A stretch of DNA of 26,360 bases from a virus (lineage: Duplodnaviria > Heunggongvirae > Uroviricota > Caudoviricetes). The stretch's first letter is position 1; the number at the start of each line of letters is the position of its first letter. Position numbers and translations under genes: made by a program. A model generated the notes under the pieces. That model had not been told where the DNA came from. It did no database searches and saw nothing but the letters and a program-made list of their open reading frames with translations. The DNA lies in IMG/VR virus record IMGVR_UViG_2534682078_000020. The stretch is one strand, 5' to 3'. Positions 9,791 to 15,949 of the stretch are shown here, piece after piece.

Positions 9791-10525
9791 TCACCGCTGC
9801 TGTTCTCTGGTGGCGGTAATATCCCGGAGAATATCCCGGCACTTGTTCAGCTCCCGCAGCGCGGCGCAGACTCGCTCCCACTTCTGAACCTGACCTTTTG
9901 CCCGGCGCAGCTCGCGGTTAGCCACATGCAGCGATGGTAAAATCAGACCATCCGGATGCTTTCTGGTGAACGACGGCTGTGACTGCACTGTGACCGCCAC
10001 ACTTTCCGTTTTTATTTCTTCCTGTGTTTCCGCTTCCCCGACTGGTAACGCAACACCTGCTGGCTGAGGAAAGGCTTTACCATCCGTTTCCGCTATGGAT
10101 GCGGCTTTCGGCTCTGCCGGTAAATCAGCGCCCGGTATGCAGTACCGAAATTTACCGCCCTGATTCACGCGAATCAGACGCCCTTTGCTGATTGCCATGG
10201 CCAGTGATGAATTCGCCCGGCGGGAGGTAATCCCGAACATCAGGGCCAGCTCATCCGCCGTTTGTGGGCCATGATGTTCAATCGCCTCAGTCAGCATTTG
10301 CGCTGTCACTTTCGGTACCGGTGACACTGGTTCACTTTCACCAGCCTGAATCAGCCACCACATCGAACCCTTGTTATCCGCTTCACCACGGCGCTTCAGT
10401 TTCCACAGTTCGTTGACAGCATCTTCGCGGCTGATTCCAAGGCGCGATGCCACTACCTGTGAAGAGGCTTTTTTCAGTGCTTTCAGTGCGTCAAATACAG
10501 TTTCCATTAAAACGTCCTCCAACAA
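9791..10525 (-). CDS. Hypothetical prophage protein (DUF1627-like), N-terminal winged-helix-like region
   Basis: 244-aa ORF directly downstream of the DnaC-like gene (3-nt gap). Confidence 0.5.
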
Positions 10526-10528
10526 AAA

Positions 10529-11275
10529 TTACTTCACAACCCTCTGATTGCTGACATTTGGACGCCAGCTATCCCAGTTAAACGTCACCCACCGACCACC
10601 GTTCATGGTCATGCGGTCCATAATCCTCTCACCAAGAAGCGTGCTCATTGCGGCATGATTCAGGTTTGTTAACATCCCGACACTGCACAGTGATGCTGTC
10701 CGGCGATCAATTATCTGGTGTAATACCACCTGCTCGTTTTTCGTCTCCCGCTGAACGCCTATTTCATCCAGGACCAGCAAATCAACACTGCAAAGCTCCT
10801 GTAAAAATTTTTCCCCGGATTTGCCGTTGTCGTAGCTGTCATGCAACACGCTCATGACATCAGACACGGTGACGATAATCACGCTGCGCCCCTTCGCCAT
10901 CAGCCGGTTACCCATCGCCGCTGCAAGGTGATTTTTCCCGGTGCCGGTTTTACCGCTGAACACAAAATTCGTGCACCCGGTCATCAGTTCGTCAGCTATG
11001 GATTTGGCCTGGCTCAGCGCGTATTTTTGCCCGTCGTTCTGCACCTGATAATTCGCAAACGAGCATTTGCTGTGCAGAGGCTGGATGCCCGAACGATTCA
11101 GGATTTTTTCCACCCGCAACTGGTGATTCTGGCGGTTAATCTCCTCGCTGCGTTTTCGTCCTTCAACAAGTTGCCATTCCCGCCACTCCTCCACCGTCCG
11201 GTACGGTGGAACCGACGCCTGTGGTGCAAGTCTGCGAATACGTTCAAGAACCCCGGCTGCCGCAATGTTTTTCAT
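10529..11275 (-). CDS. DnaC-like replicative helicase loader (phage P-function analogue)
   Basis: Walker A FSGKTGTGKNHLAAAMG, Walker B LLVLDEIG, overall DnaC/IstB layout. Confidence 0.9.
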   Translation of the reverse strand: MKNIAAAGVLERIRRLAPQASVPPYRTVEEWREWQLVEGRKRSEEINRQNHQLRVEKILNRSGIQPLHSKCSFANYQVQNDGQKYALSQAKSIADELMTGCTNFVFSGKTGTGKNHLAAAMGNRLMAKGRSVIIVTVSDVMSVLHDSYDNGKSGEKFLQELCSVDLLVLDEIGVQRETKNEQVVLHQIIDRRTASLCSVGMLTNLNHAAMSTLLGERIMDRMTMNGGRWVTFNWDSWRPNVSNQRVVK

Positions 11276-11281
11276 GCCACA

Positions 11282-12358
11282 TCACCCCCTGAATCCCGGC
11301 GGAATTTCGGTATCCGGTTCAGAAATATGATTCACACAACGCTGGTTGTTCGTGCCGCTTACCGGGAGCAACCAGGGGTTTTCAAAATTCCGGTCCGGCC
11401 CAAAAAACGTCGTCGCTCGCTGAACAAATTCCGTTCCCGTTTTCCCGGTAGCCGCCAGGTATCTTGCGTAACGCCTCACACCATCCAGTATGGCCTCTGG
11501 TGGCACCCCCTCGCGTAATCTGGCCTTCCAGGCACTGAAAGCGGATTTCTTCGGGTTTGCCCCAGCACGCAACGGGTATTCCCGCCAGACCTGTTCGAAC
11601 ACATCCGGATAATCCACTCGTCCCACAGGCTGCCCGGTGTTTTCCGGGACTACCCGATCGGCTTCCCGCTGAATGGCGGAATCGGCTTCAGGCTGCTGCA
11701 GTTGGTGTGATTGCTCCGGCCTTGCGGTCATCACCTGCTGCACAGCGCCCGAATCGGCTTTCAGCGCATACGCTGAATCGGCTTCCGGTGTCGTGCCTGC
11801 TGGCTGACCAGGATTGACGGTCTGAACATCCCCTGCCTGGTTCGTGGCGTTTTTTACGCCATGGACCATAGTGTTTTGATCTTCTTGATCTGTATCTTTA
11901 TCTGTATCTTTATCTGTCGTGACTCGTCGTGACATGTGCGTGACATTTCGTGACGCGCCGTGACAATCGCCATTTTGTTCCCGCTTTCTTTCCCTCTCTC
12001 GCTGCGCCCTCTTGCGCTCTGCAGGAGATTTTGCGGTTTGCGAAATATTGCCGTTGTCCTCTTTAAGCACCTGGCGTTTTTCCCATCCAGTGATTAAATC
12101 ACCATCAAGTACCCGCCCCTGCATCGTCTGCAAAATTGAATCAATTACCTCTTCTGTCACGTCGAGCGCACTTGCCAAATCTTCTGTCGTGACATCAATG
12201 TGACCTCGCGTGACATTTCGTGACGCGCTCACCAGGAGGTGGATATACACTGCCATCACTGTTGCAATTGGCTGCCCTGACACCCTGGCAATTGTTCGCC
12301 ACTTAGGGTCATTTGGCATGTCATGCCATAATCTGAGCCAGGCGTTAGCCATACTCAC
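11282..12358 (-). CDS. Replication initiator (O-like), containing the origin iterons
   Basis: 358-aa ORF immediately upstream of the DnaC-like gene; contains two iteron clusters and an AT-rich stretch. Confidence 0.7.
   Translation of the reverse strand: MSMANAWLRLWHDMPNDPKWRTIARVSGQPIATVMAVYIHLLVSASRNVTRGHIDVTTEDLASALDVTEEVIDSILQTMQGRVLDGDLITGWEKRQVLKEDNGNISQTAKSPAERKRAQRERERKREQNGDCHGASRNVTHMSRRVTTDKDTDKDTDQEDQNTMVHGVKNATNQAGDVQTVNPGQPAGTTPEADSAYALKADSGAVQQVMTARPEQSHQLQQPEADSAIQREADRVVPENTGQPVGRVDYPDVFEQVWREYPLRAGANPKKSAFSAWKARLREGVPPEAILDGVRRYARYLAATGKTGTEFVQRATTFFGPDRNFENPWLLPVSGTNNQRCVNHISEPDTEIPPGFRG
11918..11964. repeat. Iteron cluster 1: five CGTGAC repeats at 10-11 bp spacing (putative ori), next to an AT-rich ATCTGTATCTTT repeat (11888-11915)
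   Basis: CGTGAC at 11918, 11928, 11939, 11949, 11959. Confidence 0.7.
12188..12224. repeat. Iteron cluster 2: four (C/T)GTGAC repeats at 10-11 bp spacing
   Basis: CGTGAC at 12188, TGTGAC at 12199, CGTGAC at 12209 and 12219. Confidence 0.6.
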
Positions 12359-12423: not shown

Positions 12424-12849
12424 TCAATGTACTGCCACAGCATTTCCTGCCGGGCCACCACGGTTCATCTGATTGAAACCGGCGATTGCCACTGCGACAA
12501 AATCATCAGCGTCTCTCACCAGTCGCTCCCGCGTCTCCACCAGCTCCCGAAAATAAGCTGAACTGTGGCTGCGCATTCTGGCCACCAGCAAAGGTGGCAT
12601 TGCCTTTTCGATCGCTGGTAACAACGCCTGAATTTTTTCAACTGCATCAGGGGTGTCTTTCTCTACCCAGCGGAAAATTTTCTGGGTATTGCGAGCCAGG
12701 GCTTCCGGATGGCTGTCGTCATACAGTTCAGGAAACGTCATACCCAACTCAAAATAAGCCTGGGTTATTCCAGCTGCTGGAACTTTTTCGCCATCAGGAC
12801 GCGCCCAGGCATTCATCGCCATGCGGATGTGTTCATGCTTGATTTTCAT
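12424..12849 (-). CDS. YdaT-like protein (CII-position regulator of Rac-type immunity regions)
   Basis: 141 aa starting MKIKHEHI..., which I recall as the YdaT N-terminus; sits directly downstream of the Cro-like gene. Confidence 0.55.
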   Translation of the reverse strand: MKIKHEHIRMAMNAWARPDGEKVPAAGITQAYFELGMTFPELYDDSHPEALARNTQKIFRWVEKDTPDAVEKIQALLPAIEKAMPPLLVARMRSHSSAYFRELVETRERLVRDADDFVAVAIAGFNQMNRGGPAGNAVAVH

Positions 12850-13114
12850 GAATCAAGCTCCTAGTAAGTGGTTGTGTTAACGTTTTGGTATCTTCCAGCT
12901 CGGGCCAAATATTCATCCAATCAAAAGGCCTTAGTTGCTGACGTGTAACTTCACCATTACTGGCTCGCTCAATAAGGACACATAACGATGCCCCTAACAT
13001 TTGACCTTTACTCAATGCCTTTCTTAGATAACCGATGCTAGTACCACACTCACATGCAAACATACGCTGTTCATCTGACGAAAGAGAATTGAGAAATATT
13101 CTTAATTCTTCCAT
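12833..13114 (-). CDS. Cro-like HTH regulator (YdaS-like)
   Basis: 93 aa; HTH region and ...IERASNGEVTRQQLRPFDW resemble YdaS-type Cro analogues; divergent from the repressor gene. Confidence 0.6.
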   Translation of the reverse strand: MEELRIFLNSLSSDEQRMFACECGTSIGYLRKALSKGQMLGASLCVLIERASNGEVTRQQLRPFDWMNIWPELEDTKTLTQPLTRSLIHENQA

Positions 13115-13140: not shown

Positions 13141-13190
13141 AATACCCACAGGTAAACAAAAGTCAATACCCTTGGGTTGTTTACCTTGCG
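13141..13190. promoter_or_regulatory. Immunity-region operator/promoter region between Cro-like and repressor genes
   Basis: Inverted repeat AGGTAAACAA (13150-13159) / TTGTTTACCT (13177-13186); degenerate copy of the ATACCC..GGGT operator motif (CAATACCCTTGGGTT) plus an AATACCCA half-site. Confidence 0.4.
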
Positions 13191-13213
13191 GTAATCGCAT
13201 CTATTATTTACCT

Positions 13214-13632
13214 ATGGACAAATATGAATTTAGACGACAACAACTCATCAAAATTCGTGATGAGAAATGCGATGGTAAAGCGGTTAACGTGGCCAGAAAG
13301 ATCGGTCGCGAGCCTTCTTATGTATCAAGAATGTTGTACCCAGAGGGGAAAAAGGAAAAAAACGGATCGCTGATGATATGGTGGAGATTATAGAAGAGTC
13401 CTTTGGGTTACCCCGGGGATGGATGGATGGTATCGTTTCATCATCAACGAACACAGCCTCCAATTATGAAACAAGGGTTCTAACGCCACGACAACGTATT
13501 TTTTTAGATCTCTTAGACGAACTGCCAGAAAGTGAAGCGGATAACTTATTAAAAACTCTTGAAGAGAAAAAACAGTATTACAATATGATCTACGAAGAAA
13601 TCCGTAAAAAGAAAGCACAAAACGCATCATAA
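13214..13632 (+). CDS. CI-like prophage repressor, split into two frames at an A7 run (13356-13362) as assembled
   Basis: ORFs 13172..13393 and 13378..13632 fuse if the A7 run is A8; N-terminal HTH (KAVNVARKIGREPSYVSRML); leaderless-type ATG at 13214. Confidence 0.55.
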
Positions 13633-13675
13633 CTCACCAAACAACCAGTCACCAGTTAAGACACATCAAAAAATT

Positions 13676-13710
13676 ACCCATGGGTATTTACTTTTTAAAT
13701 ACCCATGGGT
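13676..13710. promoter_or_regulatory. Two palindromic operator sites (T/A)TACCCATGGGTAT, 25 bp centre-to-centre, upstream of the left operon
   Basis: ACCCATGGGT at 13676-13685 and 13701-13710, the second a perfect 14-bp palindrome ATACCCATGGGTAT; TTTTTAAAT between them could be a -10 element. Confidence 0.6.
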
Positions 13711-13897
13711 ATCCTTCCTTTCATACCAACCCACCCCGTCCCACAGAACGCAGGGCAATACTTCGAGTTACCAGGCAGTGGTCAGGGGGTAAGTAGCCAG
13801 CCCGAGGCGTAAGAACATGACGGCAGGGTTCAACTTTAATAACTATGCAGCAGGTTTTTGTTCCGCTACCCCGGCGTTAAGGGGAAATGAGGTCAGC

Positions 13898-14050
13898 ATG
13901 GATACTATCGATCTTGGCAACAGCGAATCTCTGGTATGCGGCGTGTTTCCCAACCAGGACGGTACGTTTACCGCGATGACGTATACCAAAAGTAAAACGT
14001 TTAAAACCGAAGCTGGCGCGCATCGCTGGTTAGCAAGAAACTCCGACTGA
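13898..14050 (+). CDS. Small left-operon protein (YdfA-like, ~50 aa)
   Basis: ATG at 13898 preceded by GAGG; position matches the first small gene after the repressor in dicB-type operons. Confidence 0.45.
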   Translation: MDTIDLGNSESLVCGVFPNQDGTFTAMTYTKSKTFKTEAGAHRWLARNSD

Positions 14051-14061
14051 TGAGGTTGACG

Positions 14062-14700
14062 ATGGAATTTAAAGATTTACCTCCTTCAATCCAGGAGATT
14101 GCAGCACACACACTTCGTCATCGTCTGAACGAACTTGAATTGGAATCGGTAACGAAAAAAGACACTGATAATATGGCTCGTAATGTGCGCGATGCGTTTA
14201 CCGGATTGTATTTCTGTGCGTCTATAAATAAACACGACTCAGAGAGTGTGGCAAATAAAATTGCAGAAACGACAGCGCAAAACATCAATACGAAACCAAC
14301 GGAAGAAGAAATTGATCAGTTTGCTCATGATGCTGGTTTAAAAAACAAGAAAGAAAAATCGCCATATGCGGGGAACATGTTTGTTTATGACAATCTCATC
14401 AGAATTCGTGGCGAAATTCCGGCGGAATACCTGGCAAGAGTCCATCAGGCATTGCTTAAAAATTTGGAAACAGAATTATTTGATGGCAACACTAACGGTT
14501 TCTTCATGGTATCAGGCCTTGATAAAGACTGGGATGCAGAAAAACGCTGGAATGTTGCTACATGGTTATTCAGTAACAGAGCCGCTGCACTGGAAGCTTC
14601 GGCATGTATTTGCGGCCTGTTCTTAACAGACCACAAATATAATCTGGATGTGTACAGTTATATTTACGCTGAACACGGTCCACTCTGGATTGACTGGTAA
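14062..14700 (+). CDS. Hypothetical protein (212 aa), cargo gene downstream of repressor
   Basis: Long ORF with GAGG before the ATG at 14062; no family recognised. Confidence 0.55.
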   Translation: MEFKDLPPSIQEIAAHTLRHRLNELELESVTKKDTDNMARNVRDAFTGLYFCASINKHDSESVANKIAETTAQNINTKPTEEEIDQFAHDAGLKNKKEKSPYAGNMFVYDNLIRIRGEIPAEYLARVHQALLKNLETELFDGNTNGFFMVSGLDKDWDAEKRWNVATWLFSNRAAALEASACICGLFLTDHKYNLDVYSYIYAEHGPLWIDW

Positions 14701-14910
14701 TTATAAGGAAACACCAGCAGGGCCGCGGCGACCAACAGAACGATTAAAATCAATAATGCCATTATAAAGGACATTATTTAATTTATCGTCGAATGCTGAT
14801 TCTGTGAGCCTCAACTCTGAATGAGTTTTTAATAACCCTGATTGCCTGAGTTGATTTACCAGGCATTCAATCTGTTTTTCAATAAGCGGATTTCTTTTTT
14901 TGTTTGGCAT
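14701..14910 (-). CDS. Hypothetical small protein (69 aa), convergent with the 212-aa gene
   Basis: ATG at 14910 preceded by GGAGGA at ideal spacing; stop abuts the stop of the + strand gene. Confidence 0.45.
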   Translation of the reverse strand: MPNKKRNPLIEKQIECLVNQLRQSGLLKTHSELRLTESAFDDKLNNVLYNGIIDFNRSVGRRGPAGVSL

Positions 14911-15247
14911 TTTATCCTCCATTGAGGTTCTGGGTTAAAAATGGAGACCAACACGCTGTCACGTGTGGTCGTGCGCCGGACACGGATAAGAATCCGGTAC
15001 TGACAGTTTACTGAAAGGATATTTCCCTGAAAAGTCAGGGCATAACGCGAAAGCGTACGGCGAAGCTCTTTCCCTTAGAAGGCTTGTCGTTAGATTTCTT
15101 CGAACGTGCGCTTCCGGTTGTGGCACTCCGCGAAATGGCGCGGCGGTAAGTATGGCGGGGTTATTCCTTCCCCGTTGAGGACACCGGGTTGTCAGGTTGA
15201 CCATACGCTTAAGTGACAACCCCGCTGCAACGCCCTCTGTTATCAAT

Positions 15248-15300
15248 TTTCTGGTGACGTTTGGCGGTATCAGTTTTACTCCGTGGCTGCTCTGCCGCCC
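15248..15300 (+). ncRNA. dicF: DicF small RNA
   Basis: TTTCTGGTGACGTTTGGCGGTATCAGTTTTACTCCGTGGCTGCTCTGCCGCCC followed by TTTTT; matches my recollection of the 53-nt DicF sequence, and lies ~180 nt upstream of dicB as in Qin. Confidence 0.75.
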
Positions 15301-15480
15301 TTTTTAAAGTGAATTTTGTGATGCGGTGAATGCGGCTAAGCGCACGCGGAACAGTTAAAACAAGCGGTCTTTTACGGGCGTAACGGGAATGCTCTGTATC
15401 CGGCGTTAATTGTTAACTGGTTAACGTCACCTGGAGGCACCAGGCACTGCATCACAAAATTCATTGTTGAGGACGCGATA

Positions 15481-15669
15481 ATGGAAACGTTATTACCAAA
15501 CGTTAATACGTCTGAAGGTTGTTTTGAAATTGGTGTCACTATCAGTAACCCTGTATTTACTGAAGATGCCATTAACAAGAGAAAACACGAACGGGAGCTA
15601 TTAAATAAAATATGCATTCTTTCAATGCTGGCCCGTTTACGTCCGATACAAAAAGGATGCTGGCAATGA
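15481..15669 (+). CDS. dicB: Cell-division inhibitor DicB
   Basis: 62-aa ORF METLLPNVNTSEGCFEIGVTISNPVFTEDAINKRKHERELLNKICILSMLARLRPIQKGCWQ, near-identical to recalled DicB. Confidence 0.8.
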   Translation: METLLPNVNTSEGCFEIGVTISNPVFTEDAINKRKHERELLNKICILSMLARLRPIQKGCWQ

Positions 15670-15857
15670 ATACAGCATTTGCACTTGTTCTGACAGTTTT
15701 TCTTGTTTCCGGAGAGCCAGTTGATATTGCAGTCAGTGTTCACAGGACAATGCAGGAGTGTGTAACTGCAGCAACCGAACAGAAAATTCCCGGTAACTGT
15801 TACCCGGTCGATAAAGTTATTCACCAGGATAATAACGAAATCCCGGCAGGTCTTTAA
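15666..15857 (+). CDS. ydfD: YdfD-like small membrane (lysis-type) protein, 63 aa
   Basis: ATG overlaps the dicB stop (ATGA); N-terminal hydrophobic helix MNTAFALVLTVFLVSG; same size and position as ydfD downstream of dicB in Qin. Confidence 0.6.
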   Translation: MNTAFALVLTVFLVSGEPVDIAVSVHRTMQECVTAATEQKIPGNCYPVDKVIHQDNNEIPAGL

Positions 15858-15949
15858 AACAGTTCCGTAATAAACATCCGATTTCATTCTTATATGCCAG
15901 CAATGGCAGGGATTTGTTCACCCTTAAATCTGTAATGAGGTAAAACAAA

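Follow-up and report, generated by a model that had tools for sequence, protein, structure and literature searches.

Does the region at 14930-15857 of the stretch of DNA analysed here (26,360 nt, hereafter the window) hold an intact copy of the dicF-dicB cell-division-inhibitor operon, and is that operon released from repression by an apparent frameshift in the neighbouring repressor gene? The region was best explained, with a probability of about 0.9, as a canonical dicBF cassette in the PL-type (early-left) operon of a defective lambdoid prophage of an O111-type enterohaemorrhagic Escherichia coli (EHEC). This cassette is already known: the type has been studied since 1989-1992 and anew in 2016-2023, its occurrence in many different prophages and as multiple EHEC copies included. 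For the dicBF operon, RNA processing, control by DicA, the targets of DicF and what DicB and YdfD do are all established, and only the flanks of the present copy depart from the described picture. The copy is of little importance beyond its correct annotation. The nearest known system was the dicBF operon of the K-12 prophage Qin (ydfABC-dicF-dicB-ydfD), which the window matched in gene order and strand, with identities of 52/53 nucleotides for DicF, 89% for DicB, 94% for YdfD and 90% for YdfA.

The DicF sRNA was located on the plus strand at 15248-15300 (53 nt) with Rfam model RF00039 and by alignment to K-12, its ends being set by the K-12 numbering. The model aligned over its full length (positions 1-52 of 52, on 15249-15300) with 75.0 bits (E = 4e-15), the gathering score being 48. 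The sole change relative to K-12 dicF was A39G, at window position 15286, which converts a U-A pair of the inner stem to U-G and keeps the pairing. The terminator hairpin (15263-15299), formed by the stem GGCGGUA/UGCCGCC and the inner stem and followed by the U-run UUUUU at 15301-15305, was also found by a terminator scan. The 53-nt DicF match with its terminator, as proposed in a first-pass annotation of the window, was thus borne out. The G39 allele was present in other loci too, and at some loci DicF variants were found in which the 3' half or the 5' half was replaced. PGAP annotation of the identical RefSeq sequence included dicB and the DUF1482 gene behind it and did not include dicF.

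The ribosome-binding site of ftsZ pairs with the 3' part of DicF, and xylR and pykA pair with the 5' part (PMC5069750). In line with the 52/53 identity to K-12, the nucleotides used in both kinds of pairing were conserved. Divergence from DicF at the positions needed for ftsZ pairing had been named beforehand as the observation that would speak against the assignment, and it was not seen. RNAduplex returned the same best duplex with the K-12 ftsZ leader, at -38.5 kcal/mol, for the K-12 and the window alleles, and nucleotide 39 fell within an unpaired bulge (nt 37-40) of this predicted duplex. The energy was not separable from that of mononucleotide shuffles (-38.5 versus -33.5 +/- 4.4 kcal/mol, z about -1), so its use as proof of ftsZ pairing was dropped. 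A39G is neutral for the predicted DicF-ftsZ pairing, and the duplex calculation shows nothing further. The copy is predicted from its sequence to be fully competent, and studies that delete or quantify dicF in O111 strains should include it.

Downstream of DicF on the same strand, dicB was found at 15481-15669 (62 aa). The product matched the Pfam family DicB (PF05358) with 127.4 bits against a cut-off of 27, residues 1-62 covering profile positions 1-62, and was named "cell division inhibition protein DicB" by PGAP. It differs from K-12 DicB by seven substitutions, namely E2K, H36Q, L47V and four in the last 8 residues. The ydfD-type gene followed on the plus strand at 15666-15857 (63 aa), its ATG overlapping the TGA of dicB as ATGA. 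Its product matched DUF1482 (PF07358) with 88 bits against a cut-off of 25 and has a hydrophobic N-terminus (MNTAFALVLTVFLVSG); the K-12 homolog YdfD is annotated as "lysis protein" in RefSeq. Both genes therefore lie where they had been proposed, as dicB and an overlapping gene for a 63-aa protein. At least 80 viral contigs carry exactly this DicB allele (100% identity). The protein failed as a probe for diversity of the locus, as all 80 viral loci returned with it encode a 100% identical DicB. When species representatives were scanned with DicB, matches were obtained in Escherichia and Shigella only, plus one MAG labelled Veillonella, which was presumably mis-binned.

The DNA 5' of DicF was described beforehand as GC-rich, ORF-free and probably part of the processed precursor. 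The G+C content of 14930-15247 was 52.8%; the window as a whole has 46.8% and the genes on either side 37-41%. Mechanical ORFs do exist in this interval, for example a 95-aa minus-strand ORF with a TTG start at 14959-15246, and none of them was called in the RefSeq annotation. The minus-strand ORF was mostly stop-free in all 46 variants of the region (67-93 codons). As a hidden gene it was rejected, because variable columns were spread over codon positions 1, 2 and 3 (17, 16 and 22) and frame-shifting indels occurred. In the functional sense, with frames that are neither conserved nor annotated, "ORF-free" holds.

The non-coding precursor spacer was assigned to 14970-15247 on the plus strand, on the basis of K-12 homology and the fold of the 46 variants. 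From 14970 on, its identity to the spacer between ydfC and dicF in K-12 was about 95%. In the consensus fold of the 46 variants, 15041-15063 paired with 15100-15122 to form a hairpin. Its arms were nearly invariant, and its apex (15064-15099) was hypervariable and occurred as at least four sequence types. This pattern of arms kept while the apex varies freely indicates selection acting on the RNA, as judged from the variants compared. The window copy of the hairpin carries a private G.A mismatch (15060/15104) with respect to the 46 variants.

The leader between DicF and dicB (15306-15480, plus strand) was also predicted to be highly structured, from its minimum-free-energy fold and the 46 variants. 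It forms a 21-bp long-range stem (15308-15328 with 15445-15465) enclosing three hairpins, which was kept in the 46 variants, and its minimum free energy was -71.3 kcal/mol (z = -5.2). Four nucleotides separate the stem from the Shine-Dalgarno sequence of dicB (GAGGA, 15470-15474). Covariation across the 46 unique variants amounted to one compensatory pair in 145, seen in a single variant within its DicF terminator stem; this support is almost nil because the variants are too alike (85-95% identical). Evidence for the stems comes from thermodynamics, conservation and the cleavage-product lengths that have been published. In K-12, RNase III gives rise to a 190-nt DicF species and RNase E to the 53-nt form, and an internal promoter was not detected (bioRxiv 10.1101/2023.04.14.536235). 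A further DicF species, of 72 nt, arises when RNase III cuts read-through transcripts (PMC9438474). Counting 190 nt back from the end of DicF leads to about 15111, within the 3' arm of the hairpin 15041-15122, and counting 72 nt forward leads to 15319, within the 5' arm of the stem 15308-15328/15445-15465. With its homology to the K-12 spacer and product lengths that fit conserved stems, the spacer is thus probably part of a processed precursor, as had been suggested.

The likeness to Qin extends beyond the cassette itself. Spacer and leader together were about 95% identical to those of Qin and share with them the stems where RNase III cleavage has been mapped, and in both cases a ydfE-type exonuclease gene and an integrase remnant lie downstream. 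Qin-like DNA covered 13860-14043 and 14970-16716, the latter at 94.8% nucleotide identity. The first gene of the operon, a ydfA-like gene (DUF1391, 98 bits in Pfam; 13898-14050, plus strand, 50 aa), encodes a protein 90% identical to K-12 YdfA and 82% identical to YdaF of Rac.

Between these two blocks the window differs from Qin: in place of ydfB and ydfC it has a 212-aa ORF (14062-14700, plus strand; PHROG 2151, E = 2.5e-147) and, antisense to the expected operon transcript, a 69-aa ORF (14701-14910, minus strand; a PGAP CDS, PHROG 4274, E = 1e-51) with GGAGGA 7 nt upstream of its ATG. Both belong to PHROG families of unknown function, and no Pfam match and no K-12 counterpart were found for either. 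Further differences are a 30-nt core of the leader (15366-15395) that is a different sequence in the window, a repressor, cro and cII of other specificity with different operators, and the location, at tRNA-Ser(CGA)/mtfA for the window and at ynfP/rspB for Qin in K-12. Homology began exactly at 14970 in most related loci fetched, so this position is taken as the left edge of a mobile module. Homology to other dicBF phages resumed at about 13720, just past the palindromic sites described below. Rac-like DNA was seen only at 10098-11318 (replication genes, 74.5%) and around ydfA. The abrupt Qin-like start at 14970 and the exchange of ydfB/ydfC for two unrelated ORFs agree with the view of the first-pass annotation that the prophage is mosaic.

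On the identical sequence in strains E2863 and 11128, RefSeq annotates, in this order, the replication genes, a gene of the YdaT family, one for a "transcriptional regulator", one for a hypothetical protein of 139 aa, DUF1391, two more genes for hypothetical proteins, dicB, DUF1482, truncated genes for an exonuclease and then an integrase, and finally tRNA-Ser and mtfA. The ydfE-type exonuclease gene is fused to the truncated integrase, and both are annotated as partial pseudogenes. The tRNA was identified by ARAGORN as Ser(CGA) at 18389-18478. From this sequence context, the host element is assigned as a defective lambdoid prophage at tRNA-Ser(CGA) beside mtfA in an O111-type enterohaemorrhagic E. 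coli.

The neighbouring immunity genes had been described as resembling Rac (YdaS/YdaT-like) rather than DicA/DicC. The cII-like activator gene at 12424-12849 (minus strand, 141 aa) encodes a member of the YdaT family, with 39.6 bits for Pfam YdaT_toxin against a cut-off of 21 and a match to PHROG 163, "CII-like transcriptional activator" (E = 3e-45). In BLASTP it was 33% identical to Rac YdaT (144 aa) and 38% identical to Qin YdfX, and since the Qin protein is also related, a YdaT-family protein does not separate Rac from Qin. The cro-like gene at 12833-13114 (minus strand, 93 aa) encodes a weakly YdaS-like regulator, which reached 25.9 bits for Pfam YdaS_toxin, below the cut-off of 30, and matched Rac YdaS at 39% over 44 aa in BLASTP (E = 9e-7); no significant match to DicC was obtained (E = 0.04 over 42 aa).

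The immunity repressor gene at 13214-13632 (plus strand) encodes 139 aa in close relatives and is split in the window by a deletion at 13348, so the intact protein of strain 11128 was used for the comparisons. The repressor belongs to PHROG 5736, "transcriptional regulator" (E = 5e-70). It had no match in Pfam and no similarity to RacR, the best BLASTP E-value with the intact 139-aa protein being 2.3. Its C-terminal 46 residues resembled DicA (33%, E = 1e-7). The combination of a DicA-type repressor with a DicC-type cro, which marks Qin-type immunity, was not found, the likeness to DicA being confined to the C-terminus of the repressor. Of the supposed Rac character, the YdaT-family protein was borne out and a RacR-like repressor was not, and the likeness of the cro-like protein to YdaS was weak and below the Pfam cut-off. 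By sequence the region is a third specificity in the same layout, and "Rac-type" overstates the relationship.

Repeat search and direct reading revealed candidate operators in two places. Three operator-like sites, TACCCACAGGTA, TACCCTTGGGTT and TACCTTGCGGTA, lie at 13143-13193, between the divergent cro-like and repressor genes in an OR-like position, and are related to two perfect 12-bp palindromes, TACCCATGGGTA, on the plus strand at 13675-13686 and 13700-13711, 43-79 bp downstream of the repressor stop codon. Flanked and overlapped by these palindromes is a promoter-like pair recognised by eye, TTTACT (13687-13692) and TATCCT (13710-13715) with a 17-nt spacer, matching the consensus at 8 of 12 positions. 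A sigma-70 scan reported no promoter at the OL-like operators, TTTACT-17-TATCCT falling below its threshold. We infer that 13675-13715 is an OL/PL-like control region of the dicF-dicB operon with a candidate weak promoter. The presence of operator-like sites in both control regions supports a regulatory link between the repressor and the operon, as far as can be read from the sequence.

By homology with the K-12 Qin operon we infer how the cassette would work, and this applies equally to the promoter, the processing sites, expression and the activities of the proteins and the RNA. The intact 139-aa repressor would bind operators of the TACCC-N2-GGGTA type, three beside the cro-like gene and two over the weak promoter. 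When repression lapses, transcription would reach the spacer after crossing ydfA, the 212-aa ORF and the oppositely oriented 69-aa ORF. Co-transcription is assumed here, since the window, in contrast to K-12, has an opposite-strand gene (14701-14910) separating dicF from the promoter. RNase III would then cut the hairpin 15041-15122 to give the 190-nt species, which RNase E would trim to 53-nt DicF with its end at the Rho-independent terminator. Read-through RNA would be cut by RNase III in the stem 15308-15328/15445-15465, producing 72-nt DicF and a dicB-ydfD mRNA. DicF together with Hfq would repress translation of ftsZ and of metabolic mRNAs and in EHEC would also activate pchA, DicB together with MinC would inhibit formation of the FtsZ ring, and YdfD would be lytic if over-produced.

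It had also been suspected that the repressor is frameshifted and that the operon could consequently be derepressed. The frameshift is present in the window sequence: compared with strains 11128 and E2863, one A of an A6 run is missing at 13348, leaving A5. The native reading frame of the repressor is thereby lost after residue 47: the N-terminal product is 59 aa long, 47 of its residues being native, the rest of the gene is left as an 84-aa C-terminal ORF, and the helix-turn-helix portion is parted from the C-terminal portion. If the change were genuine, the dicF-dicB operon and the divergent YdaS/YdaT-like operon would be constitutively or stochastically derepressed in this strain. Such a reading can draw on the differing lengths of the A6GGA7 tract in other public assemblies, which include A6GGA6 (CP042981.1), A5GGA6 (AIGJ01000049) and A5GGGA6 (three JABKD* drafts), and on the 84-aa C-terminal ORF having been called on 23 contigs. 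However, the segment is carried by 819 complete RefSeq E. coli genomes and none of them matched the window 61-mer at 100%. With the intact 62-mer as the query, 97 of the 819 were identical and 722 had one differing position, and among the 42 matches listed (of 819) no indel was found at the A6 run, all covering 62 bases with an intact 139-aa CDS. The only other indel of the window with respect to near-identical relatives (within 1-21038) was likewise an A lost from an A-run (A7, at 17976), as is typical of homopolymer miscalls. The repressor segment occurred at one place per genome in the relatives, with no second copy.

Derepression of Rac ydaS/ydaT is toxic in K-12. Loss of DicA repression of dicB is likewise toxic there according to published work, and a viable null in the present strain would need compensation. 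Because the listed RefSeq genomes are free of the indel and the other indel of the window is also an A lost in an A-run, derepression of the operon through the frameshift is unsupported, and a genuine null allele is considered unlikely. The frameshift is most likely a homopolymer miscall, judging from these sequence comparisons, and any argument about phenotype should start from its being a probable assembly error.

The canonical cassette must also be weighed against the reading that the copy is decaying and silent, having lost expression or function within a cryptic prophage. The prophage is indeed defective, with exonuclease and integrase pseudogenes, ydfB and ydfC have been replaced, the path of the operon is interrupted by the opposite-strand ORF and the putative promoter is weak. 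Against decay, dicF, dicB and ydfD are intact and 89-98% identical to functional K-12 alleles, the DicB allele is shared without change by the viral contigs mentioned above, and the non-coding stems were kept in the 46 variants while the apex varied. The Qin copy of K-12 is no less cryptic, and its expression in stationary phase has been observed all the same (bioRxiv 10.1101/2023.04.14.536235). A silent remnant therefore appears quite unlikely. Least probable of all, and very doubtful, is that the A6GGA7 tract (13343-13358) is a slippage-prone site at which lineages or subpopulations repeatedly lose the repressor, a loss that, if true, would turn on DicF/DicB and the YdaS/YdaT-like operon and make the tract a heritable and reversible switch of a toxic prophage cassette: at least four tract length variants exist in public assemblies, and no indel was seen in the polished complete RefSeq genomes examined.

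As a canonical dicBF cassette, the region can be placed beside other division-inhibitor loci of lambdoid phages. Lambda kil is a small FtsZ-directed division inhibitor in the PL operon under the control of the immunity repressor, which is the same layout. It has no known sequence similarity to the window cassette, and lambda is not known to have a DicF-like sRNA before kil. The kilS-kilR locus of Rac in K-12 is closer: it has a PL-type position, an sRNA with a DicF-type terminator, a structured leader and a small division inhibitor, and window positions 15262-15465 were 76% identical to the Rac sequence. KilS matched the Rfam DicF model at 39 bits, under the gathering score. Unlike in the window, the body of KilS (5' part and loop) is unrelated to DicF, and the inhibitor is KilR, not DicB. 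The paper naming KilS does not mention DicF.

The leader also resembled STnc100 (RF02076), a Salmonella and gammaproteobacterial RNA family of Rfam. Positions 15298-15513 spanned all 206 positions of the model and share its long-range stem, and the CACCNGGAGGCACCNGGCAC hairpin conserved in that family recurs in the dicF-dicB leader. With 34.7 bits, below the gathering score of 47, the leader is a relative at best and not a member of the family. As the DicF terminator and leader are common to Rac KilS/kilR, and in view of the STnc100 likeness and the half-replaced DicF variants, sequence comparison suggests a shared chassis consisting of a terminator plus an RNase III leader, with exchangeable seed regions, placed before small division inhibitors in lambdoid PL operons. 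This idea could merit a small comparative study.

The distribution of the module was determined in complete E. coli genomes. All 928 bases were present at 100% identity in many of them, mostly O111 Shiga-toxin-producing strains (11128, E2863, RM9322), and the surrounding 8.6 kb had an identity that rounded to 100% in 127 genomes. A match to the module was obtained in 4740 of 5426 complete genomes, and in 3816 of the 5426 it covered at least 80% of the length. The median was 2 places per genome and the maximum 10, with 5-8 in the O111 relatives. In this the window resembles the multi-copy dicF strains of EHEC O157:H7 (Sakai, EDL933, 86-24), likewise pathogenic E. coli in which each genome has dicF-dicB at several places; it differs from them in being O111-type and not O157. 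Four dicF copies have been published for EHEC, in which DicF activates pchA under low oxygen. The module also occurs in functional lambdoid phages, for example Tritos, where dicF is annotated, and mEp460.

When window 15262-15465 was compared with the kilS-kilR leader of Rac (K-12 Rac region, L004 750-954, minus strand), the two were 76% identical over the DicF terminator hairpin and the entire dicF-dicB leader. KilS (K-12 b4833) ends at its 3' end in a terminator of the same type as that of DicF, and the Rfam DicF model scored KilS at 39.1 bits, under the gathering score of 48. DicF is not mentioned in the paper that named KilS.

The leader also resembles the Salmonella sRNA family STnc100, whose Rfam model matched window 15298-15513 over its full length with 34.7 bits (E = 1.6e-5), a score below the threshold of 47. 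A long-range stem and the CACCNGGAGGCACCNGGCAC hairpin are common to STnc100 and the dicF-dicB leader, and STnc100 may be a homologous prophage leader.

Variant forms of DicF were found in viral and genome loci at the position matching window 15248-15300, with the other flanking sequence kept (comparison loci L088 2777-2826, L072 2777-2826, L062 2775-2826, L066 and L092). The loop and 3' half of DicF were swapped in three of these loci (Rfam 43.5 bits, below threshold). In another the 5' half was swapped and the terminator stem carried compensatory changes (GGTGG/CCACC). One variant locus had lost the DicF body, leaving a bare hairpin. A dicB locus was also carried by contig JAGZPX010000007.1 (L090). 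This contig is labelled as part of a Veillonella parvula MAG; it almost certainly comes from an Escherichia prophage and was binned wrongly.

Upstream of dicF, the place of ydfB/ydfC is taken at window 14062-14910 by two convergent ORFs that abut directly with zero spacer, one of 212 aa (PHROG 2151) and, on the other strand, one of 69 aa (PHROG 4274). A transcript carrying the dicF precursor would run across this opposite-strand 69-aa gene, and sieB is placed similarly in Rac.

The A6GGA7 tract of the repressor gene (window 13343-13358) occurred in at least four length variants in public assemblies, namely A5GGA7 in the window and A6GGA6, A5GGA6 and A5GGGA6 elsewhere; among the complete RefSeq genomes examined, its length was intact. 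The integrase remnant has, at 17970-17976, a second deletion of a single A, which shortens an A7 run to A6 by comparison with the O111-type strains 11128 and E2863; this deletion altered the ORF pattern and produced an apparent 677-aa exonuclease-integrase fusion ORF (15950-17983). An IS1203 (IS3-family) element interrupts the ydfE-type exonuclease gene of strain 11128 at the point matching window 16375/16388; neither the window nor E2863 has it.

Collinearity of the window with 11128 ended after 21038 and was absent from 21039 to 26360, indicating that the island downstream of tRNA-Asn differs in structure. An IS3-family frameshifting pseudoknot was identified on the plus strand at 25674-25790 (Rfam ALIL, 121.5 bits). 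The prophage also contains, on the minus strand, a hok/sok-type toxin-antitoxin locus at 7597-7922, comprising an Rfam sok match (7748-7922, 113.5 bits) and a Hok/Gef family CDS annotated by PGAP at about 7597-7752. Three clustered prophage tRNA genes (Arg, Arg and Ile; 3204-3455, minus strand) adjoin the IS66-family element ISEc47 at about 582-2998.
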